A stretch of DNA of 64,000 nucleotides from a phage. The stretch lies in the NCBI GenBank assembly GCA_026066175.1, contig GCA_026066175.1_4721.1; one strand, given 5' to 3'. Shown here piece by piece: positions 4,801 through 33,692 of the stretch; position 1 is the stretch's first letter; each line of letters opens with the position of its first letter. A program made the position numbers and the translations under genes. The notes beneath the pieces were generated by a model. The model saw only the letters and a list, made by a program, of their open reading frames with translations, ran no database searches and was not told where the DNA came from.

Positions 4801-5421
4801 ACCAACAACCGACGGGGTGATTTCAAGCAGTTGGCACCATTCGTAACGTTTCGGTTTCGCATCGTAGGTAACTGGCAATGACTGTTTATACGTTCCGACA
4901 CGGTTCAGGTTGTACTTCTTCCTGGCCGATCCTAAATCAACGTAAATGCTAGAACTCGAACTCGCTCCGTATGTACCTAAACCACCCAACGTTGAACGGT
5001 ACAATGAAATAAACAACGTATCTTCCCAGTAGGGATTATCCTCGGTAGGTTCTAACGCAATCTGAGCGGATATCGAGTTCCATGTACCGAGTTGATACGT
5101 TGCGTCGAGAGATTCATCCGTGAAGTACGACTCTGGTAAGCTGAGTTGATACCTTTCGTTAATTAATGCTAACGCGGCACGACCCGTAATATCTTCATTA
5201 CCAGTTTCTTTCTTTACGATCGCGCCGAATGGAAACAACGTTGCAAATGAACGTTTTGGTTTATTTACGGTTACCGTTCCTGTGTAGCTTCCTGTTCCCG
5301 TGAGTTGTTGGCCATCAACTGTTGCGGTAACGTTGATAGTCGCATCTGGAACGTTCGTTTTGTTGAGCGTGTTTAGTTGCTCGATCAATTCGTGTTTATC
5401 GTCGGGTAGAAATGTTGCCAT
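1825..5421 (-). CDS. Large (1198 aa) putative virion structural protein, tail fibre/tailspike-like
   Basis: Very long ORF lying between two fibre-domain paralogs; Trp/Tyr/Gly-rich C-terminal region; no catalytic motif recognised. Confidence 0.35.
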   Translation of the reverse strand: MATFLPDDKHELIEQLNTLNKTNVPDATINVTATVDGQQLTGTGSYTGTVTVNKPKRSFATLFPFGAIVKKETGNEDITGRAALALINERYQLSLPESYFTDESLDATYQLGTWNSISAQIALEPTEDNPYWEDTLFISLYRSTLGGLGTYGASSSSSIYVDLGSARKKYNLNRVGTYKQSLPVTYDAKPKRYEWCQLLEITPSVVGGQIDWSNYLTLEPLTPTFPVMEINKTYYFLLWTFNRQDWYVKQIAASERYKDVAQLIGKWMITASPVNFVGYGHARFLTRNTGTFTDPETDHYVLNESGVLVNNRHFIAATRQEAQPDGDATTEGQSLLILGASIFSHTTDDTQLKAHFLTLAESSFDAYVKAFYAGLEPPDTPTRWIANWIVNGKQPVLAHYPLAKDDYPTHGGFHDTAVVFTNGIGKIPHGSPTFGEYMDLVVQVYEGKLGWQNLNADVFKTNENGTIDWNTKGTVFPIEKLALRTKRYVTADGEDLEACADDEVGTIVLKDKSVTGSYLVAWAPRVPVEYGGYLIKTNECQHNRPIQVPVTRDYMGNASDAEQWFCEAAYTLYRLTQQERYQKAYKASLFTIEEYTRIDANDKFFRQVKGTDRYDTDGIAYTYTYPSKAPFTITRDVDGWIVIQASSAQIYLEQQAIPFRVNRDSILRVTCGGKDVAGVAIPVEISLSLSLDKTEAKAKTYKLVLPSSVEPKEWDFKIGALIPADAVDEASTPTGDAVTGSVLISADKVGWKDDVAITTEFSDAVEDSCDGLFLKAQLTAAGGQFEFNPTAKQIVRQVSYFASIDYNVRVEDANGWRWWQMLPATTARNTLTLSATGWTLSGYQPNHADTDPKPSAPVWGDGSTEILFLPDDSDIAEGVFKLYAINNPPSTYATDDGYTMLFTLKATFEAEGTLRVGDCTIVNQRLDPLPYTPGIIPFSNNYIPNAPTFDSWRGQPYPGYQHPWVFLDMDVSAERRDLMIQNVVDFWYDSQQWYYQKFGVLGPGASAYVWDRWDAPSGSKVNDFTMYHFGDQTAWSGYQPRAFFSAVRLYAGLIDRKLTVPEKLTHYISHWIDFLYTFQQENAYQSPTDFPMEKPPAFIPNDFTGHMAGLWLAGASLAMLYGHPNDKGYPVAVNVYNEIAENYINHYTVDDAMNGGWSPAPDSANLGRDGMYFGFWSGEILRGLGYYIALLRDVKPTI

Positions 5422-7738: not shown

Positions 7739-8269
7739 TTAATTTTGGCCTATCACCTTTTCTACCGCTTCAAGAATAGCGTCGTTTAGTCGTTGCCCAC
7801 GTTCCTCCATTGTTCCACCATCGCGATGTTTGTAGTTAACCGAGCAGATATCCCAAGCCCAGTAAGGCATCTCCGATGACTTGTCATCTCTGGTAGGATC
7901 GTTCAATCTGCTAGCACTAATCTGCCAGATGAAATCGGCGGGTTGTTGCCGTAAGCATTCACCTATAGCGTCTATATAAGACAACCCTTCGGTCGTCATA
8001 GCGACGATGACGTGCGGGTGTTTATTAACAACCTTCGTGATTGGTTTCCCATTAACAACCACTATACGGGTTACGTTATCGTGCCCTTCGCACGACCACA
8101 TCGGTGCGATACCAGGCGCATCCAATAATGCCTGACAGGCGGGTAAAATACGCGGTTCGACTACACCTGCTTCGATAGCAGCCCGTGCGCGCTCTTTAAA
8201 ACGCATCAGTTGTTCTTCAGTGATAACAAAAGAAAACATGGTTACTCCTTTCTGGTTCTTCCCCTCCAC
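7739..8269 (-). CDS. Hypothetical protein
   Basis: 176-aa ORF; no motif recognised. Confidence 0.45.
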   Translation of the reverse strand: MEGKNQKGVTMFSFVITEEQLMRFKERARAAIEAGVVEPRILPACQALLDAPGIAPMWSCEGHDNVTRIVVVNGKPITKVVNKHPHVIVAMTTEGLSYIDAIGECLRQQPADFIWQISASRLNDPTRDDKSSEMPYWAWDICSVNYKHRDGGTMEERGQRLNDAILEAVEKVIGQN

Positions 8270-8311
8270 AGCCTCAGGAAGAGAAGAACCATTTGTTACG
8301 TTGACGGATGA

Positions 8312-8569
8312 TCAAAATCCACTGATTGGATTGTTCAACGCTTTATCGCGGATTTTAATTGCCGCCAACATCGCTTTCTGATACGAATCGTAGGTATCGA
8401 CAGAAACCGTTAAATCGACCAATTTCTCTAACACAGATTCAGTCGCTTTTACGCGAACGCGAAACTTGGTAATGACATTATCTTTGTTACGGTAAACTGT
8501 GATGTGATGCAACGGCTGAACTTTAGTTTTATTAGTTTTAACGGATTTAGTTACTTTGATCGTTTTCAT
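8312..8569 (-). CDS. Hypothetical small protein
   Basis: Start moved to MKTIKVTK (AGGAAACCGCC upstream); the longer ORF-track start would translate through the terminator hairpin at 8624-8641. Confidence 0.4.
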   Translation of the reverse strand: MKTIKVTKSVKTNKTKVQPLHHITVYRNKDNVITKFRVRVKATESVLEKLVDLTVSVDTYDSYQKAMLAAIKIRDKALNNPISGF

Positions 8570-8623
8570 GGCGGTTTCCTTTTTAACTAGGATGATTGCA
8601 TATACAGGGTTTAACGGCATAAA

Positions 8624-26826: not shown

Positions 26827-27201
26827 TTACCAGAGACGATTACCTTCCTCGTCCCACCAAGCAATCGCTTGCGTCGACTCAAATGAGTGAGGACGTAATG
26901 CCATGCCTTTGCGGTCAACGACTAACCGTAATTCGGTACCGAACCATTCAATCGAGATAAACAAACCCTTCCGAATGATGGCCTGGTAACCCGATAACCG
27001 TTCAAAGAGCCGTTGAAAGATCGTATCGTGTTCACACGACGTTAACGCTTCTGAATAACGCTGCAGGGATCTTGCATCAACAGGTAACCGTGTTTTACAG
27101 TTCCACCACAATACCGCGTACATCAATGCCGCATTACGCAAACGTAACGATTGAACCGGTGTGAGTTGTCGTCCTTCAACATCATCAATAATAACATACA
27201 T
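26827..27201 (-). CDS. Hypothetical protein
   Basis: 124-aa ORF. Confidence 0.4.
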   Translation of the reverse strand: MYVIIDDVEGRQLTPVQSLRLRNAALMYAVLWWNCKTRLPVDARSLQRYSEALTSCEHDTIFQRLFERLSGYQAIIRKGLFISIEWFGTELRLVVDRKGMALRPHSFESTQAIAWWDEEGNRLW

Positions 27202-27433
27202 TGCGTTTTATTCCGCGCTTGTTTCCTTAACATGGACACATTCCGCATCGATAATCACGCCGGTAGAACGATTCGTCTCGTTGGAGGAATCAAATCCGCT
27301 ATTAAACAACATCGCGAACGTGTTGTTATCCATACGAGCAAAGGTCTCCGCAATACGATCGGGATGAAAATCGGTGCGGTTGATGGTCGATTTCACAAGA
27401 ACTCCTATAAACAAATTAGTAATGGTGTTGAAA

Positions 27434-27913
27434 TTAAAGCAGGATCTGCGGGCAGCAGCAAGATTCGTAACCGCCTTCATACGGTAGTGTATTGCTGGTG
27501 TCAGGCCAAACAAGTTGAATACCCGCAACCTTCCCATAACGGACAACAGCGGTTGTTGCGTATTCTTGATTGAATGCGTCGATATCTTCGATTTCACGTA
27601 CATCCAAACGAAGGGTTTCACCAGTACCTTTCAGGGTCAGGTTACCATCAAAAGCACCTAATGGAACGGTCTTTGTTTTGACCATGAAATTACCCAGTTT
27701 GTTAATCGCGTTACCTAACGCCGGACAATAACCAGATACGAAGATTTCCGGCATTCCGTGTTCGGTTAACCCAACGGTATACATAAAGCCAGGCTCGTCG
27801 CTTCCTTCATCAGGAGCGACACCGATAATAGCCCAATGCTTTTTCTCGATTTGTTCTTCAACGAGATCATTCAGTTTGGAGAAATTATTATTAAGTTTAG
27901 CAACATTACTCAT
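27434..27913 (-). CDS. Hypothetical protein
   Basis: 159-aa ORF. Confidence 0.45.
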   Translation of the reverse strand: MSNVAKLNNNFSKLNDLVEEQIEKKHWAIIGVAPDEGSDEPGFMYTVGLTEHGMPEIFVSGYCPALGNAINKLGNFMVKTKTVPLGAFDGNLTLKGTGETLRLDVREIEDIDAFNQEYATTAVVRYGKVAGIQLVWPDTSNTLPYEGGYESCCCPQILL

Positions 27914-28193
27914 GTTCTCTTTCCTTTAATGCGTTTTCTAACCAACGGACGTAGCTTTCACGATAGATGTGAATATGTCTTTTCCCGTCCCGGAAGTTAG
28001 GGTCAATGAGGTGAACAGCGGCGGACGTAGACGCCACCGCGTGCTGAAGATGTTTTCGCGTTAATCGTCCAAGTTTTACCCAACGTCTGATGTAACGTGC
28101 ATCTGTTGCTAAGCATGTTCGCTCATCAACGAAAGGCACCAGGACTTGGACGATGCTGCCGTAATACACCATCGAACTATTGAACATCTGCAC
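27906..28193 (-). CDS. Hypothetical protein
   Basis: 95-aa ORF. Confidence 0.35.
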   Translation of the reverse strand: MQMFNSSMVYYGSIVQVLVPFVDERTCLATDARYIRRWVKLGRLTRKHLQHAVASTSAAVHLIDPNFRDGKRHIHIYRESYVRWLENALKEREHE

Positions 28194-28217
28194 CTCCGTG
28201 CAAATGGATGGAGCTGA

Positions 28218-28517
28218 TTAGTGAAGAATTACTGTTTGTGACCCGTTCTCGTATTCGGCCTGCAACTCGTCGTAACGACGATTGACAACTTTGATTGCGT
28301 TATCGATCTCCGACGTATCTGACGCAACCGATCGTCTCGCTTCCAATCGGTCTAACAACGCATCGCGCATACCTTCTGCGGCGGCGAGCTCACAGGTTGC
28401 CTGGTGTCGATCGTCTGAAAAGATGAAGAATGATTTGTTTTCTTCATCGGCCAGGAAGTAGTTACGAATCTCAGCCAATCGTTCCTCTGAGATTGGTCCA
28501 CGGTTATTTTCGCTCAT
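28218..28517 (-). CDS. Small acidic helical protein
   Basis: 99-aa ORF in the AT-richer stretch. Confidence 0.4.
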   Translation of the reverse strand: MSENNRGPISEERLAEIRNYFLADEENKSFFIFSDDRHQATCELAAAEGMRDALLDRLEARRSVASDTSEIDNAIKVVNRRYDELQAEYENGSQTVILH

Positions 28518-28529
28518 CTTGTATCCCTC

Positions 28530-28850
28530 TTAAAGTTTTAATGTATTTACGCCGTTTATAAGGGCATTGATTTCATCATCGATATTACTCACTCGTTCGA
28601 TAATCTTCTCCACTTGAATGATAGATTTCTTGTAAATACTCGCTGTCGCCGCAAGACCTTGTCCGTAAACACTCGAAATGTATATTCGAAGTTCTTTTAG
28701 GCGATCGAGCAACGACTGTGCTAGTTCTAAATATAACAATGTTTCGTTTGTTGGAATCGCTGTATTGAAAACACGTAACTTATGTTCTAACAACGATGTT
28801 GCGGCTTCAAGTTGGTAGGTGTATCTACGGTAAGCTTTAGGGTCAATCAT
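28530..28850 (-). CDS. Small helical protein
   Basis: 106-aa ORF in the AT-richer stretch. Confidence 0.4.
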   Translation of the reverse strand: MIDPKAYRRYTYQLEAATSLLEHKLRVFNTAIPTNETLLYLELAQSLLDRLKELRIYISSVYGQGLAATASIYKKSIIQVEKIIERVSNIDDEINALINGVNTLKL

Positions 28851-28857
28851 AACGACT

Positions 28858-29253
28858 TTATTTGTCAGGGTCTGGAAAATAGTAAAATCGCCAATGTAAC
28901 ATGGTAATTGCGTTTCTTATTCGATGTGCCTGAACACGGCGTCCAAGGAAGGACTTGTAGCATGAATCGCGATCCATAAACAACTCATGATTCGCTTTCA
29001 TCAGAATCACGATGTCCCTTAGATACGAATGGCAACACTCGATAAATGGGTCCGTATCGTACGTATATTTCCTCGCACTACCTATCCCCAACTCTCTATT
29101 TAACTCGCGACTGTTTATCATCAGCTTCGCATAACCGATAAGCCGAACGAAGTCCCGTAAATTGCGACGAAAGCAAAAATGTCGCCAGGTTCTTAGTACG
29201 TTATGTGACGGACCGGCGAGCGTCTGAGCCTCCGTATTAGAGTTAGTCATCAT
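28858..29253 (-). CDS. Hypothetical protein
   Basis: 131-aa ORF. Confidence 0.35.
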   Translation of the reverse strand: MMTNSNTEAQTLAGPSHNVLRTWRHFCFRRNLRDFVRLIGYAKLMINSRELNRELGIGSARKYTYDTDPFIECCHSYLRDIVILMKANHELFMDRDSCYKSFLGRRVQAHRIRNAITMLHWRFYYFPDPDK

Positions 29254-29875
29254 TGATACCTTCTATTAGTTGTACAGCAACTTCTTTTTCGGTGTTATAA
29301 AAGAACTTGCGGTGGAACTGAACAAGAAGCTTTTCAAATTTACATTGGACGATCTTTTTGCGTTCGATATGACCCAGGGAGAGCAAAGCACCCATGCAAC
29401 GTACAGCTTGCTCAAGAACTTGTTTTGCGGTATCGTGATCGTCTGGCAACGGTAAATCATTATCGTCCTGAGCGATAAGCCGTTTAATGATATTATCGAT
29501 ACGTACGCCATCACCATCGATGAACGCCGTTTTCTCCCATTTTTCGATTCGTTGGCGTGCCTCTTCCTGTATGAGTTGACGATATTCGGTTAACTCTTTT
29601 ATCTGGGTTTCTAAATCGTTTACGATTTGTTGGACGGACTGAAATTCACTTTTATTTTTATACCACCAATCGTTATGCGATGAAATCTTTTTAGCTTGTA
29701 ATACCACGCCACGACATACGTTAACCAAATGGTCACCATCCGGTAGCTCGGTACCGAAATGACGTTTGTGTTGATAACGCATCACACGTAGTAAACGTTT
29801 AGCCAGGAAACTTTGTTTATCGAGTTTCTTCTTCAGTTGTGTATATTTCTCTTCTCTTATTTCCATTAATTCCAT
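29243..29875 (-). CDS. Coiled-coil-like hypothetical protein
   Basis: 210-aa Lys/Glu/Gln-rich ORF. Confidence 0.4.
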   Translation of the reverse strand: MELMEIREEKYTQLKKKLDKQSFLAKRLLRVMRYQHKRHFGTELPDGDHLVNVCRGVVLQAKKISSHNDWWYKNKSEFQSVQQIVNDLETQIKELTEYRQLIQEEARQRIEKWEKTAFIDGDGVRIDNIIKRLIAQDDNDLPLPDDHDTAKQVLEQAVRCMGALLSLGHIERKKIVQCKFEKLLVQFHRKFFYNTEKEVAVQLIEGINDD

Positions 29876-30264
29876 GATGTTGTACCTCGTTCAGCGATCA
29901 GGAGAGTCTTGGTTACGCTTTTTGCTAACACACCGCAGTTACGATATATGCGCCTAAGGGACGATTTCAATTCGCAATAACGACTAAAATAAACTTTCAA
30001 GTCGTCTCTTGTTACCTCATCAGTATGTATTTTCGTAGAAACGCCGAGATCGATAAACTCTTTTCTTAATTGAGATAGTTCGTCAAGAAGGCGATGATAA
30101 CTTAGAGAGATAATAGATTTATCGGATAGTGGCTCGCCAGTTATCTGGCTCTGACGCTCATCGAAGTATTGTAAGTGCCATTCGATTCGCTTATGCAATT
30201 TATCGAGTAAACCAATAAAAGTATTATAGTTGGTAACGGCCAGGTTAACTTGGCTAGTTAACAT
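29866..30264 (-). CDS. Hypothetical protein
   Basis: 132-aa ORF. Confidence 0.4.
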   Translation of the reverse strand: MLTSQVNLAVTNYNTFIGLLDKLHKRIEWHLQYFDERQSQITGEPLSDKSIISLSYHRLLDELSQLRKEFIDLGVSTKIHTDEVTRDDLKVYFSRYCELKSSLRRIYRNCGVLAKSVTKTLLIAERGTTSWN

Positions 30265-30596
30265 TTCACATTCTCCGTTATTTGCTTTAAACAGTTACGT
30301 ATACTTTTCAATCGATGGTTAAATTCAGAACGATAGCACTTTCGTACATCCCGTCCTGCTCGCGCTTTGTTTGCCTGATGAAGCTGTTCATTCACCTGGG
30401 ATGCTATACGTAAACGCTGTAATAATGACCTCAGCCGAACAACAACCAACGGCTGTTCTTTCACTTTCTCGAGTTTAAGTAGATAGTCAATATGAAACTT
30501 TATTCCGATGATCTGATTCCTATTTTTGCGGTACTGGCGAATATGCCAACATCGACGGAAATAGGCGATGCTAAACATGGGGTAGATTCTCTTCAA
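30258..30596 (-). CDS. Basic hypothetical protein
   Basis: 112-aa Arg/Lys-rich ORF. Confidence 0.35.
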   Translation of the reverse strand: MKRIYPMFSIAYFRRCWHIRQYRKNRNQIIGIKFHIDYLLKLEKVKEQPLVVVRLRSLLQRLRIASQVNEQLHQANKARAGRDVRKCYRSEFNHRLKSIRNCLKQITENVKC

Positions 30597-30599
30597 ATG

Positions 30600-30797
30600 C
30601 TACCTCCGATAATACTTCGGATTAGGTGCTTTATGGTACTTATAAATACCTATTTTCTTCTGTTTGTCTTTACCAGGTCCTCGCTTAACGCGTTTGTTGA
30701 AAACACGATCCAAATATCGAGTAGCTATAAATCTGGACAAATACACCGGATCGATATAATCCATGGTACCTGCTTCTGTTTCTTCGAGACACTGCAT
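30600..30797 (-). CDS. Small basic protein with KRGPGKDK motif
   Basis: RVFNKRVKRGPGKDKQKK; member of a four-copy small-protein family. Confidence 0.3.
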   Translation of the reverse strand: MQCLEETEAGTMDYIDPVYLSRFIATRYLDRVFNKRVKRGPGKDKQKKIGIYKYHKAPNPKYYRR

Positions 30798-30823
30798 CCG
30801 TAACTCCTCTTTCCTCTAAGAAA

Positions 30824-31027
30824 TCAATCCAACATAAGCCACGACATCGCTTTCACGAGATAATCCAATGCAACGTCCATGATTCTTCGTTCCGACGTTT
30901 GTGTGATGCGTGCCGTAAATCGCTTTCCTTTATTACAACCCTTCTTGTATTTCCCTTTGATATAACGAACACCAATCGTGTCACGAATAACAAGTTCGGC
31001 TACGTCGTAGGGCGATATCTTAGTCAC
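30824..31027 (-). CDS. Small basic protein with KKGCNKGK motif
   Basis: RYIKGKYKKGCNKGKRF. Confidence 0.3.
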   Translation of the reverse strand: MTKISPYDVAELVIRDTIGVRYIKGKYKKGCNKGKRFTARITQTSERRIMDVALDYLVKAMSWLMLD

Positions 31028-31037
31028 CGTGTTTACC

Positions 31038-31193
31038 TCAAGTAGAGAAGGTTATCGGCTTTATTTCTACCTGTCCGTACATCCAGGTGTATCTCGATTT
31101 TCCTTTACGAGGACCTTTCTTAAATTTGGTGCTTATCGAAATACGATAACAGTACGACCAGGTCGCACGATTTATAGTGATCTTGTCCGCCAT
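31038..31193 (-). CDS. Small basic protein with KKGPRKGK motif (ORF absent from the supplied track)
   Basis: Hand translation: MADKITINRATWSYCYRISISTKFKKGPRKGKSRYTWMYGQVEIKPITFST; GAGGG upstream. Confidence 0.25.
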   Translation of the reverse strand: MADKITINRATWSYCYRISISTKFKKGPRKGKSRYTWMYGQVEIKPITFST

Positions 31194-31202
31194 GCCTTAC
31201 CC

Positions 31203-31496
31203 TCAGTGCAATTGTTTCTTAAACCCAGCATTAAGGAGCTGGGTTCTTTCATCGATAGTATCCAACGTGGTCAATAACAACCTGCGTTGTTCTTTCGTCA
31301 ACATCTCTCCTTTAAGACGCTGTTCTATTTCTATCTTCAGTAGCATCGGCATCGTTTGCGATAGCACGCTATCCGCTTCTATCTCGTAATTATCTTCCGG
31401 CGTGGGTAATACATCACTAACACCGACAAGATAATGGCCGATAACGGTTCGTCGTCTTTCCATTGCCTCCAGCAGTTCGCTGCTCACTTCATCCAC
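31203..31496 (-). CDS. Hypothetical protein
   Basis: 97-aa ORF with a GTG start preceded by AAAGGAGGA. Confidence 0.4.
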   Translation of the reverse strand: MDEVSSELLEAMERRRTVIGHYLVGVSDVLPTPEDNYEIEADSVLSQTMPMLLKIEIEQRLKGEMLTKEQRRLLLTTLDTIDERTQLLNAGFKKQLH

Positions 31497-31539
31497 GATT
31501 ATCCTCCTTTAAGGGCGAGGTACCTCGCCCTTAAGATCT

Positions 31540-32559
31540 TTATACCGCTACTTGTGCTTTAATAGCAGGGTGTGATTGATATCCGACGAACACAAAGTCT
31601 TCGTAACGGTAATCCGTGATACTCTCCGGTTTCCGCACAATTTTCAGTTTCGGTAGTGGATACGGCTCACGACTAAGTTGTTCTTTAACCTGTTCGAAGT
31701 GGTTATGGTAGATGTGACAATCTCCACCTGTCCACACAAACTCCCCAACGTCCATGTTCAGCTGTTGCGCAAGCATGTGTGTTAACAACGAATAGGAAGC
31801 AATGTTAAAGGGCGTCCCGAGCAGCGCGTCCTGGCTACGACAAGTCAGCATACACGACAGTGCGCGCGTAGGTACGTTATGCGCATTCAACCAGAGTTCG
31901 GTTTCGCTCTGTTTAACATCGTCGGTAACCCATCGTGCTCTTAGCGCATCGTTGCGGTGGACGTAATAAACACGTTCATCGATAGTGAGTTCATGGGTGT
32001 AGAACTGATAGAAACTGTGGCATGCAGGAAGCGCCATATCGTCTAAATTGCCTACGTTCCATGCGCTAACGATAATCCGTCGAGAATCAGGATCTTCTTT
32101 GAGTTGACGCATCACGTTTGCAATTTGGTCATGGTGTTTAACATACAAGAGATGTTTAACCATACCGTCGTTAACAATACCGCAATACTCATAACCGCGT
32201 TGCATCAAAGTACGGGTACGTTCGGTGTCGTGCGGAACAACAACTTTGTAGTCGATCCATTCACGCCATTGTCTACCGTAAATCGGCCCTAGGTTCCCTT
32301 CTTTATCAGCCCACTCATTCCAAATACGTACGCCGTTATCCTGAAGATACGCGACGTTCGTATCACCGTTAAGGAACCAGAGTAGTTCGTGAACAACGCT
32401 CTTAAGGTGAATCTTCTTGGTGGTGACCAACGGAAACCCTTTCTTTAAGTCAAAATGCATTTGACGTCCGAATACCGAACGTGTGCCGGTACCGGTACGA
32501 TCAGCTTTATCGCGACCGCTATCCATGATGTCTTGTAAGAGATCTAAGTACTGTTTCAT
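31540..32559 (-). CDS. thyA: Thymidylate synthase (ThyA family) with two insertions
   Basis: Collinear with E. coli ThyA from MKQYL..DRTGTGT..FPLVTTK..HELLWFL to [14 protein letters not shown], the catalytic Cys in [21 protein letters not shown] and C-terminal REP.PLPKL; ~40-aa and ~30-aa insertions give 339 aa versus 264. Confidence 0.85.
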
Positions 32560-32768
32560 TTCAATCCTCTAAACGCTTTAGGTAGTTCCTGAAGTTTGTC
32601 ACGATATTTAGAATCGCTTAACGTGTAACAACAACCACGTAACACGTTGTATGCGTAATCAGCTTGTAAACCACGAACCATCGGATCCGACGATAGATTC
32701 AATGGTACATCATCAAAAATCCACACTTCAACGTTCTTCTTGTGTTCCTTCGTTAACATCGTTTTCAC
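32556..32768 (-). CDS. Hypothetical small protein
   Basis: 70-aa ORF, ATGA-coupled to thyA. Confidence 0.35.
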
Positions 32769-32828
32769 CTCACGATAAAGTAAATAGGATTTGTCGAGAC
32801 GCCCTATTCTTTTATCGTTGGTTTTCCA

Positions 32829-33692
32829 TTAGTAATAATATCTGATACGTTCGGGTTTTGCTAAAACACTCTGTTCGAATGGCCTTACATGTACGCAAAC
32901 ATCGACAGAATAATAGATACTACCATCGCCACACCATCGCATTACCACACATCCCTTTCTTGTACGAATATGGTAAAACGTCCACTGTGTTTGCCAGTTA
33001 TCGTCTGTGGATTCTTCCGTTCTTTCTTCCGCATCAAGAATCTTTTCACCGACAATATCGCTTAAATCACCATCGATATCGCTGAGATATACCGTCTCGC
33101 AACACTCACGGCTGTGGTACATTTCTACCACGTTATCGTCTTCGCGATGAAAAAGGATAGCTTTACAGTATTCCAGCTGTTCCTCGGTTATTTCTGACGC
33201 GTTAAGTAATTCGTCGTTATCAGTCACCATCCAGATATTTTTGATTACATGCCCGTCGAGCTCCTCCATTGTAAATACCTCGATATTCGGACGAACGGGT
33301 TCAGGTTGAACAATCGGAATACGAACACAACCAATTAAGGCCATCCGTCCTTTCTTTGGTCTAACCGCAAGGTAAGGTGATTTTCTTGGGTGGTTATGCA
33401 GACGTATTTCTAATTCGTCGAATTTAATCCCGTATATACCTAAGAAACGATCGAACAACCGATGAAACTCATCTGTTGCTTCTTCCAACGTTATGGCGTC
33501 TACCGTGAGTTTATGTCCCCTGAACACTCTGGTTAAATCGATAACGTCCAGTGTCTTGAAATATATTTCCGTAAGGGGATGATTTGTATTTTCCAGGTAC
33601 GTAATGGTTCTTTGAACCCAGATTTTAGGCGCAGCGCCTTTAAAACGTTTCAGGTATTTAAAGCGATAACGGGTATGATCTGATGTTATCAT
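32829..33692 (-). CDS. Hypothetical protein
   Basis: Start moved to MITSDHTRY (GAGAGGAGG upstream); the longer ORF would read through the terminator hairpin. Confidence 0.45.
   Translation of the reverse strand: MITSDHTRYRFKYLKRFKGAAPKIWVQRTITYLENTNHPLTEIYFKTLDVIDLTRVFRGHKLTVDAITLEEATDEFHRLFDRFLGIYGIKFDELEIRLHNHPRKSPYLAVRPKKGRMALIGCVRIPIVQPEPVRPNIEVFTMEELDGHVIKNIWMVTDNDELLNASEITEEQLEYCKAILFHREDDNVVEMYHSRECCETVYLSDIDGDLSDIVGEKILDAEERTEESTDDNWQTQWTFYHIRTRKGCVVMRWCGDGSIYYSVDVCVHVRPFEQSVLAKPERIRYYY

Follow-up and report, generated by a model that had tools for sequence, protein, structure and literature searches.

Gene content and coding capacity of the locus

Positions 28218 to 30596 of the window, by which we mean the whole 64-kb stretch of phage DNA analysed here, carry six consecutive minus-strand ORFs that overlap or lie at most 12 nt apart (genes A to F, Table 1). 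Over 27-32 kb the window phage shares approximately 80% nucleotide identity with Escherichia phage Goslar, and it is a Goslar-like nucleus-forming jumbo phage, a chimallivirus of Enterobacteriaceae. The block is embedded among genes for DNA metabolism (thymidylate synthase, DNA ligase, exonuclease) and, as in Goslar, is flanked by genes for a DUF4262 protein and thymidylate synthase, with gene order and strand also the same in the two phages. A, B, D and F are direct orthologues of Goslar gp133-gp136 (YP_009820818-YP_009820821, all annotated as hypothetical proteins), to which they show 79%, 60%, 69% and 85% amino acid identity, respectively. Goslar differs in that it wholly lacks E, and its C orthologue, which is present, is unannotated in the RefSeq record. 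Gene G, although outside the six-gene stretch, belongs to the same AT-rich run.

Table 1. Positions and properties of the six genes, the C-terminal domain of D and the adjoining gene G
Feature	Coordinates	Strand	Product and remarks	Goslar orthologue	GC
Gene A	28218..28517	-	99 aa, acidic (net charge -9)	gp133	48.3%
Gene B	28530..28850	-	106 aa, Leu-rich	gp134	37.7% (lowest of the six)
Gene C	28858..29253	-	131 aa, Arg-rich; predicted three-helix bundle; variable cassette		44.4%
Gene D	29243..29875	-	210 aa	gp135	40.0%
D C-terminal domain	29246..29461	-	codons ~139-210; near-invariant in the alignment of relatives
Gene E	29866..30264	-	132 aa; variable cassette		39.1%
Gene F	30258..30596	-	112 aa, 24% K+R, net charge +20	gp136	40.4%
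Gene G	30600..30797	-	65 aa, basic; outside 28218-30596	gp137	39.4%

The first-pass annotation of this DNA had described six consecutive ORFs here, and that description is borne out. All six lie tightly packed on one strand, third codon positions take most of the substitutions, and dN/dS falls between 0.08 and 0.33 across the whole set (A, 0.11-0.23; B, 0.11-0.28; E, 0.33; F, 0.08-0.15). Five of the genes have a Shine-Dalgarno-like motif upstream, and ORF lengths are conserved among relatives whose proteins are 40-95% identical. Together, these features show that the six ORFs are real genes. The opposite reading, which treats some or all of the ORFs as spurious and takes the AT-rich stretch for non-coding or regulatory DNA, could draw on their small size, on the omission of C from the Goslar RefSeq annotation and on the TTG start of F. 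That start is preceded by GGAGG, has an alternative ATG at 30578 and opens an ORF that is kept at 110-111 aa in the eight relatives whose ORFs were extracted. Besides the conserved lengths and ribosome-binding motifs, this reading is opposed by an Rfam search of 26-33 kb that matched no RNA family and by promoter- and terminator-like sites that are no commoner than in shuffled sequence; the substitution pattern refutes it, and we give it practically no credence.

The six proteins are mutually unrelated, with every pairwise hhalign probability below 1%. E had been entertained as a diverged tandem duplicate of F on the strength of a blastp alignment (24% identity over approximately 90 aa, E = 0.06 in a tiny database), a relationship that profile-profile comparison rejects.

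Lineage restriction, mosaicism and predicted structure

When the six proteins were searched by tblastn against 50,697 phage records, Goslar was the sole match, and a profile of D run against 1.84 billion representative proteins recovered its own cluster and fragments only. Across broad metagenome protein searches, conducted for D and E, and IMG/VR viral contig scans, which also included A and F, these four proteins matched Goslar-like contigs alone. Neither the phage records, nor the D profile, nor the contig searches yielded a donor-like homologue outside the Goslar clade, and complete E. coli genomes and PLSDB plasmids contained no close relative. NCBI lists a protein identical to E, annotated as hypothetical, under E. 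coli O157. In Pfam, PHROG, NCBIfam and the PDB none of the six proteins found a match (for A this holds for families and PDB entries alike, and F has no sequence relative in the PDB), nothing significant emerged from the anti-defence families within Pfam, PHROGs and NCBIfam, and PADLOC gave noise-level hits of 11-15 bits, all in keeping with the earlier statement that these are orphan proteins with no recognisable motif. The literature consulted assigns no function to Goslar gp133-gp137, and the supplements to the Chimalliviridae core-genome paper do not, in the portion available, contain the accessions of the Goslar orthologues of A, B, D and F. Judged from these searches, the six genes are orphans of the Goslar clade that lie outside the Chimalliviridae core.

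Of some 60 known Goslar-like genomes (bioRxiv 10.1101/2024.12.31.630880) and related contigs, we compared 15 related loci, which come from metagenome or isolate-assembly contigs and do not represent independent lineages. All 15 carry A, B, D and F in synteny. C is absent at four (L004, L005, L006 and L009) and survives in L007 as a remnant of 24 codons, leaving five relatives without an intact copy. E is missing from nine of the 15, including Goslar, L003 and L004-L009, and is found in the window, in L010-L016 and in 11 protein clusters; an alignment across its junctions shows 12 nt at the F/D boundary replaced by a 402-nt segment. Because Goslar, a plaque-forming isolate, has no E and five relatives have no intact C, these two genes are dispensable cassettes, and A, B, D and F are fixed among the sampled members of the clade. 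The first-pass annotation had proposed acquired accessory genes and had named membership of a conserved core in relatives as a ground for refutation; the presence of A, B, D and F at every locus partly refutes the proposal on that ground, and the turnover of C and E favors it.

Variation within the block also takes the form of allele exchange. B occurs as two allele types that are approximately 60% identical to one another, and L012 changes allele type directly downstream of the D C-terminal domain. The latter shares 83-99% nucleotide identity with all eight aligned relatives, and its dN/dS is 0.03-0.08 compared with 0.22-0.45 in the middle domain of D. We considered whether the 3' end of D might be a nucleotide-level element or an overlapping gene: an alternative-frame ORF spans 29266-29517 on the strand of D, and L008 is frameshifted into that frame. 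Both possibilities were rejected since synonymous sites there vary at the usual rate, with codons differing in 28 of 65 columns whose amino acid is invariant, and the constraint would therefore operate at the protein level. The conserved domain is likely a crossover site for mosaic exchange. Under the history that we propose, the block would have passed down vertically in the Goslar clade, with homologous recombination shuffling it among relatives that circulate together.

The proteins had been described as Lys/Arg/Glu-rich, helical and coiled-coil-like. Mean K+R+E content is 23.4%, compared with 19.4% (SD 4.4) in the other ORFs (p = 0.025), a weak enrichment that is clear for A, D and F and not for B, C and E. 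AlphaFold2 models, built for D and C from shallow alignments of 7-9 sequences, are all-alpha, which upholds helicity for these two. The model of D (pLDDT 74.6; helices at residues 2-38, 47-74, 78-117, 147-167 and 170-207) predicts a fast-evolving N-terminal three-helix bundle followed by a near-invariant C-terminal helical hairpin and has no fold match in BFVD or the PDB; that of C (pLDDT 80.5, pTM 0.72) retrieves generic bundles only when Foldseek is run against the PDB (E >= 0.42). In both models helices of 20-40 residues form antiparallel three-helix bundles or hairpins and not long coiled coils. For A, B, E and F, the sole pointer to helicity is a Pro+Gly content of 3.6-6.9% against 9.6%. 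A motif in C, SRELNRELGIGSARKYTY, had raised the prospect of a helix-turn-helix DNA-binding protein, which we rejected: C has no Pfam or PDB sequence match even at E <= 10, and its model places SRELNRELGIGSARKYTY within one long helix of a protein for which Foldseek finds generic helical bundles. Membrane location was likewise dismissed, as the 19-residue Kyte-Doolittle mean never exceeds 0.86 in any of the six and none therefore looks membrane-bound. Overall, the six proteins appear to be small and soluble, with neither an enzymatic nor a membrane signature.

Base composition and the origin of the block

The GC content of 28218-30596 is 41.7%, compared with 45.7% for the 64-kb window, which places it at the 1.4th percentile among all windows of equal length; the global minimum of 40.6% starts at 28405, inside the stretch. 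With an empirical SD of 1.66 points for windows of this size, the dip amounts to about -2.4 SD, which is roughly the value expected for the lowest of some 27 independent windows. At a scale of 500 nt it extends past the end of the stretch to approximately 30976, into genes G and H. B, D, E and F (38-40%) drive the dip, and neither A (48%) nor C (44%) is AT-rich relative to the remaining ORFs of the window (mean 45.2%, SD 2.4). The stretch had been called AT-richer from hand counts of 21-23 G+C per 60 nt. Its standing as the lowest-GC 2.4-kb stretch in the window supports the call, the modest depth and the two genes of ordinary composition qualify it, and the counts fall on the low side of a measured mean of 25.0 per 60 nt (27.4 overall, SD 3.75). 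The much higher GC reported near 57.7 kb is confirmed by a window maximum of 50.7% at approximately 57.6 kb.

The dip lies chiefly at the second codon position (GC2 of 0.337 in the block against 0.386, p about 0.05; 0.25 in D alone) and is not significant at the third (GC3 of 0.427 against 0.462, p = 0.20), so that it reflects amino acid composition. We propose that proteins low in Gly, Pro and Ala and high in Lys, Glu, Ile, Leu, Asn and Gln would lower GC2 and thereby produce the mild AT-richness, to which weaker constraint on small genes may contribute. The orthologous block has 39.9-41.8% GC against flanks of 44.1-45.4% in nine of the nine relatives measured; as the same dip recurs in the same block of all nine, it is inherited.

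These results bear on the main proposal of the first-pass annotation, namely that the stretch is an accessory island acquired horizontally, marked by foreign composition and bearing genes for anti-defence or host takeover. In its favor are the location of the window's lowest-GC 2.4-kb stretch, the orphan status of the proteins, the turnover of C and E between relatives and the early-class behavior of the Goslar orthologues described below. Sliding-window GC and GC3 analysis, however, reveals a modest dip, lying mainly in GC2, that is not a sign of transfer and that does not track the variable genes: C has average GC, A lies above the average, and the lowest values belong to the fixed B, D and F. 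Both dip and synteny are conserved in all relatives examined, and the searches above returned no homologues outside the clade and hence no donor. Furthermore, the block has no meaningful flanking repeats or mobility genes, and candidate sites for a private promoter or terminator fall within shuffled-sequence expectation. The mild AT-richness is not evidence of foreign origin, recent acquisition of the whole block is largely refuted, and we consider the island proposal unlikely.

The morons of lambdoid phages are compositionally deviant inserts that are transcribed independently. E and C resemble them as single-gene insertions or deletions between conserved neighbors in a somewhat AT-rich block. 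They differ in having no private promoter or terminator, in the unremarkable composition of C and in being translationally coupled to their neighbors through overlapping start and stop codons.

Early expression and candidate functions

Published RNA-seq data for Goslar provide an indication of expression class. At the single time point tabulated, 30 min after infection, knock-down of ChmA changes gp133-gp137 by about -0.1 to +0.65 log2 units, whereas the late genes tabulated alongside them lose 3 to 7.5 log2 units (bioRxiv 10.1101/2023.09.20.558163, Supplementary Table 2). The read density of gp133-gp137 resembles that of neighboring genes, and the whole gp106-gp159 block, thymidylate synthase included, shows the same pattern (bioRxiv 10.1101/2023.09.20.558163). 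The annotated Goslar orthologues of A, B, D and F thus behave like early-class genes, in data that pertain to Goslar and not to the window phage. This behavior fits candidates for host takeover or anti-defence and does not discriminate among functions, as gp106-gp159 all behave alike. It does weigh on the idea that the proteins are packaged in the virion or associated with the nucleus shell as structural components. Small charged helical proteins can serve as internal head proteins or scaffolds, but the transcripts of the Goslar orthologues hold on ChmA knock-down when those of structural genes drop by 3 to 7.5 log2 units, and the cryo-EM paper on the Goslar virion, which lists 28 virion proteins, does not name gp132-gp137 in its main text. 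A structural role is very improbable.

Our favored account, which is probably correct, is that the block belongs to the plastic, early-transcribed part of a Goslar-like chimallivirus genome that lies outside the core, and that it is made up of six unrelated small-protein genes that are maintained by vertical descent and recombination and likely encode binding proteins. Composition and fold class suggest that the most likely role of the products is that of a set of non-enzymatic binding proteins active early in infection. The early infection vesicle would supply the transcripts, translation would take place in the cytoplasm, and the proteins would act by binding partners, not by catalysis. For F, with a net charge of +20, the most plausible ligand would be nucleic acid or some other polyanion. 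In D, the invariant C-terminal hairpin may hold a conserved partner as the variable N-terminal bundle diversifies. Overall, the proteins would tune host or phage processes early in infection, to a benefit that is, at least for C and E, non-essential.

It is possible, though we hold it at less than even odds, that the proteins serve the phage's own program (early transcription, replication, the vesicle-to-nucleus transition or mRNA handling) and not the host. The location amid DNA-metabolism genes, the similar read density and apparent co-transcription with thymidylate synthase, DNA ligase and exonuclease, the strongly basic character of F and the invariant C-terminus of D, as a conserved phage partner would predict, all point this way. 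Yet other chimalliviruses share this program and have no homologues, C and E are dispensable in nature, and neither C nor D has a detected DNA- or RNA-binding fold.

The block of small binding proteins that we favor has parallels in known systems. Work by Comeau and Krisch from about 2007 reportedly defined the hyperplastic regions, or 'plastic periphery', of T4-like phages as groups of small orphan genes, mostly early and non-essential, whose content varies from one relative to the next. Our block shares with these regions tightly packed small orphans of early class (as judged from the Goslar RNA-seq), gain and loss of whole genes, mosaicism of alleles and a lack of detectable homologues outside the group. 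It differs in belonging to the Chimalliviridae and in being less plastic, as four of its six genes are fixed, such that the likeness is one of analogy and not homology. Among nucleus-forming phages, Dip of phiKZ, a degradosome inhibitor, is an early small orphan protein that acts on the host. JADA of Pa36 is an essential early protein with a novel fold that is specific to the family Chimalliviridae (PMC12931631). Like these two, the six proteins are small products of a nucleus-forming phage, without known domains and expressed early, and Dip and JADA act or are sensed through protein-protein contact. There is no similarity of sequence or fold to either, and the six genes, unlike JADA, are specific to the Goslar clade and include two that are dispensable.

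On its own, the result is of minor importance. It indicates that a jumbo-phage genome can carry a mild compositional dip that is an inherited by-product of protein composition and not a mark of transfer. It also supplies a candidate list for screens in Goslar-like phages, consisting of four clade-fixed and two dispensable early orphans, one of them missing from the Goslar annotation, for which natural presence/absence variants can be used as ready-made knock-outs. We tentatively raise the prospect, which we think somewhat doubtful, that one or more of the proteins is a new effector that counters Enterobacteriaceae defence, reprograms the host or aids the persistent, carrier-type association of Goslar-like phages with bacterial isolates. 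The main candidates would be the cassettes E and C, together with D, in which an invariant C-terminal anchor is joined to a fast-evolving N-terminal bundle. Should this be true, the exchange of alleles and the turnover of cassettes would record an arms race. Any of the proteins with a proven role in anti-defence or persistence would be particular to the one E. coli phage lineage known to form a nucleus.

Six clade-restricted genes of a Goslar-like phage

Genes A-F follow one another head to tail on the minus strand, overlapping slightly or separated by at most 12 nt, and Shine-Dalgarno-like motifs precede five of the six; F starts with TTG and carries GGAGG six bases ahead of it. Substitutions relative to orthologues concentrate at third codon positions, and dN/dS (Nei-Gojobori) is 0.08-0.33, compared to 0.02-0.06 in the neighboring thymidylate synthase. 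The six consecutive ORFs of the first-pass annotation are thereby confirmed, and they are real, constrained and moderately fast-evolving genes.

A search of our phage collection with window 27-32 kb returned a single match, Escherichia phage vB_EcoM_Goslar (Chimalliviridae, 237 kb), at ~80% nucleotide identity, and complete E. coli genomes and plasmids gave zero matches to the window stretch. Protein E is identical to NCBI 'hypothetical protein OOS50_002637 [Escherichia coli O157]', and L013, a contig from public sequencing of a bacterial sample (run SRR22175737), is identical to window 26866-33264. Taken together, these three matches indicate that the window is a Goslar-like phage from a bacterial isolate assembly. 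Its recurrence in SRR22175737 and the O157-filed protein fit the persistence in bacterial isolates that has been reported for Goslar-like phages; a preprint describes 59 phages of this type versus one cultured isolate (bioRxiv 10.1101/2024.12.31.630880).

The proteins had been described as orphans with no recognizable motif, and this held: Pfam, PHROGs, NCBIfam, PADLOC and PDB sequences gave no significant match, nor did searching by fold, with D against viral predicted structures and PDB and with C against PDB. No two of the six are paralogous, and none has a membrane-like hydrophobic segment. By tblastn against 50,697 phage genomes, all six matched Goslar only; an exhaustive D-profile search of 1.84 billion representative proteins recovered D's own cluster and four fragments, and nothing else; E fell into 11 clusters, each of ~132 aa, of which those checked sit on Goslar-like contigs; and A and F were restricted to two Goslar-type contigs in IMG/VR. 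In the available part of the Chimalliviridae core-genome paper supplements, accessions of the annotated Goslar orthologues of A, B, D and F (gp133, gp134, gp135 and gp136) do not appear. Genes A-F are thus restricted to the Goslar clade.

The proteins had also been called helical and coiled-coil-like. AlphaFold2 models of C (pLDDT 80.5, pTM 0.72) and D (pLDDT 74.6) are all-alpha, both with a three-helix bundle, to which D adds a helical hairpin on the C-terminal side, and the low Pro+Gly content of A, B, E and F is compatible with helices; the modeled folds are antiparallel bundles, not classic coiled coils. The proposed Lys/Arg/Glu richness is a mild overall excess (23.4% vs 19.4%, p = 0.025) that comes mostly from A, D and F.

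Features of the block, its orthologues and its surroundings
Feature	Location	Strand	Detail
Gene A	window 28218-28517	minus	GC 48.3%
Gene B	window 28530-28850	minus	GC 37.7%
Gene C	window 28858-29253	minus	GC 44.4%
Gene D	window 29243-29875	minus	GC 40.0%
Gene E	window 29866-30264	minus	GC 39.1%
Gene F	window 30258-30596	minus	GC 40.4%
Gene G (next gene)	window 30600-30797		GC 39.4%
Alternative frame of D	window 29266-29517		open
D orthologue, frame shift	L008 (237-kb metagenome contig) 8001-8618		near codon 175
Unannotated Goslar C orthologue	L001 (Goslar locus) ~4876-5244; NC_048170 ~129362-129730	minus	intact, 122 aa
Mini-protein gene	window 30824-31027		67 aa, Lys/Gly-rich motif
Adjacent mini-protein gene	window 31038-31193		51 aa, motif in common
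DNA repeat in mini-protein genes	window 30924-30952 and 31099-31127
Gene with GTG start	window 31203-31496
GC-rich hairpin	window 31508-31535		perfect, 13 bp
Thymidylate synthase	window 31540-32559		intact, 339 aa
Thymidylate synthase in two pieces	L011 75-2202; L012 1-1726		GIY-YIG + NUMOD3 ORF between
Dam-like methyltransferase (PF02086)	L007 12658-13422; L008 12912-13739; L010 10461-10949; L014-L016 locus end

Presence, absence and mosaicism among relatives

Using tblastn, we compared the block across 15 related loci. A, B, D and F occur in 15/15, in the same order, with a DUF4262 gene on one side and thymidylate synthase on the other. L004, L005, L006 and L009 lack C, and in L007 it is cut to a 24-codon in-frame remnant in which both ends are kept, proving deletion. 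The window and L010, L011, L012, L013 and L014-16 carry E, and Goslar, L003 and L004-9 do not. At the site of E, 402 nt stand in place of 12 nt, and the swap begins exactly at a shared start codon that overlaps F's stop and ends at D's codon 5, such that translational coupling is preserved with or without E. The block therefore splits into four fixed genes (A, B, D and F) and two cassettes (C and E).

Alleles within the block are also mosaic. In amino acid identity to the window, L004 and L009 reach 92-99% for A, B and F, whereas G is just 71-74% identical. The mosaic relative L012 (a DRR595539 contig) matches the window's proteins at 93-100% identity over genes J to D, beyond which its C, B and A are of Goslar type (83, 60 and 77% identity to the window); the crossover lies at D's strongly conserved 3' end. 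In Goslar itself, an intact C orthologue, 83% identical to window C over residues 23-131, lies in the annotation gap between gp134 and gp135, and the missing C in the RefSeq record seems to be an omission in gene calling.

D evolves at two speeds: residues from ~139 to the end are almost invariant across all relatives (dN/dS 0.03-0.08), whereas residues 46-138 diverge to ~50% identity (dN/dS 0.22-0.45 in this middle domain). A hidden nucleotide element at the conserved end is ruled out by this low dN/dS and by persisting synonymous variation, with codons varying in 28/65 columns whose amino acid is invariant; the conservation points instead to strong protein-level constraint. We infer that the C-terminal hairpin has a conserved binding partner while the N-terminal bundle diversifies. 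Separately, the D orthologue of L008 shifts to an alternative frame, open in the window too, and the shift reflects either true truncation or an error of assembly.

The split in the thymidylate synthase of L011 and L012 resembles a group I intron carrying a homing endonuclease, the arrangement known from T4 td. A hairpin, CTTAAGGGCGAGG-TA-CCTCGCCCTTAAA, separates the stop codon of thymidylate synthase from the ribosome-binding site and GTG start of the gene that comes next. Exact copies of the hairpin are confined to L012 and L013, the closest relatives; on the coding strand it lacks a following T-run and so does not qualify as a classic terminator. The two mini-protein genes may represent a small tandem duplication. 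Downstream of the block, a Dam-like DNA methyltransferase gene found in some Goslar-like relatives and absent from L004-L006 is a further presence/absence gene.

Base composition of the block

The block was first flagged as AT-richer, and its GC content is indeed 41.7% versus 45.7% for the window, placing it at the 1.4th percentile among windows of equal length, with the global minimum (40.6%, starting at 28405) inside it. With a standard deviation of 1.66 points across such windows, this dip of ~2.4 SD is little more than chance expectation for the lowest of ~27 independent windows, and at the 500-nt scale seven further segments fall below the mean minus 2 SD. Four of the six genes bear the dip, which continues beyond the originally stated limit into G.

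Composition had further been read as a mark of horizontal acquisition, a reading that these data do not support. The largest shift is at codon position 2 (0.337 vs 0.386; 0.25 in D), whereas the difference at position 3 is not significant (0.427 vs 0.462, p = 0.20), and in nine relatives the block is similarly 39.9-41.8% GC against 44.1-45.4% in the flanks. Small genes in the window are generally slightly GC-poorer (Spearman rho 0.36 between length and GC). The dip is an old, inherited trait, driven mainly by amino acids.

Expression and candidate roles

Published Goslar RNA-seq (bioRxiv 10.1101/2023.09.20.558163, Supplementary Table 2) places gp133-gp137, the last being the orthologue of G, at ~0.5-1.2 reads per nucleotide at 30 min, like their neighbors. 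Upon knock-down of the nuclear shell protein ChmA they change by log2 ~ -0.1 to +0.65, while structural and late genes fall 3 to 7.5 log2 units. The authors treat the knock-down profile as equivalent to early infection; on that footing, these maintained transcripts mark the orthologues as early-class in behavior, with transcription from the infection vesicle. The entire gp106-gp159 block behaves alike, and expression thus dates gp133-gp137 without setting them apart. Our literature search found no published function for gp132-gp137, and the paper on the structure of the Goslar virion does not mention them in its main text.

Collectively, we infer that A-F proteins would act through binding rather than catalysis, early in infection and in accessory roles, those of C and E being dispensable. 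The original proposal, that these accessory orphans are candidates for functions directed at the host, survives as a hypothesis; their targets could be host proteins (for takeover, anti-defense or persistence) or, alternatively, phage processes. There is no evidence for a new mechanism in the block, which is an ordinary early region of a large phage, plastic and rich in orphan genes; hyperplastic regions in T4-like phages and early orphans in phiKZ-like phages are comparable cases. Its study nonetheless yields useful by-products in an unannotated Goslar gene, variants that naturally lack E or C, and the two evolutionary speeds within D.
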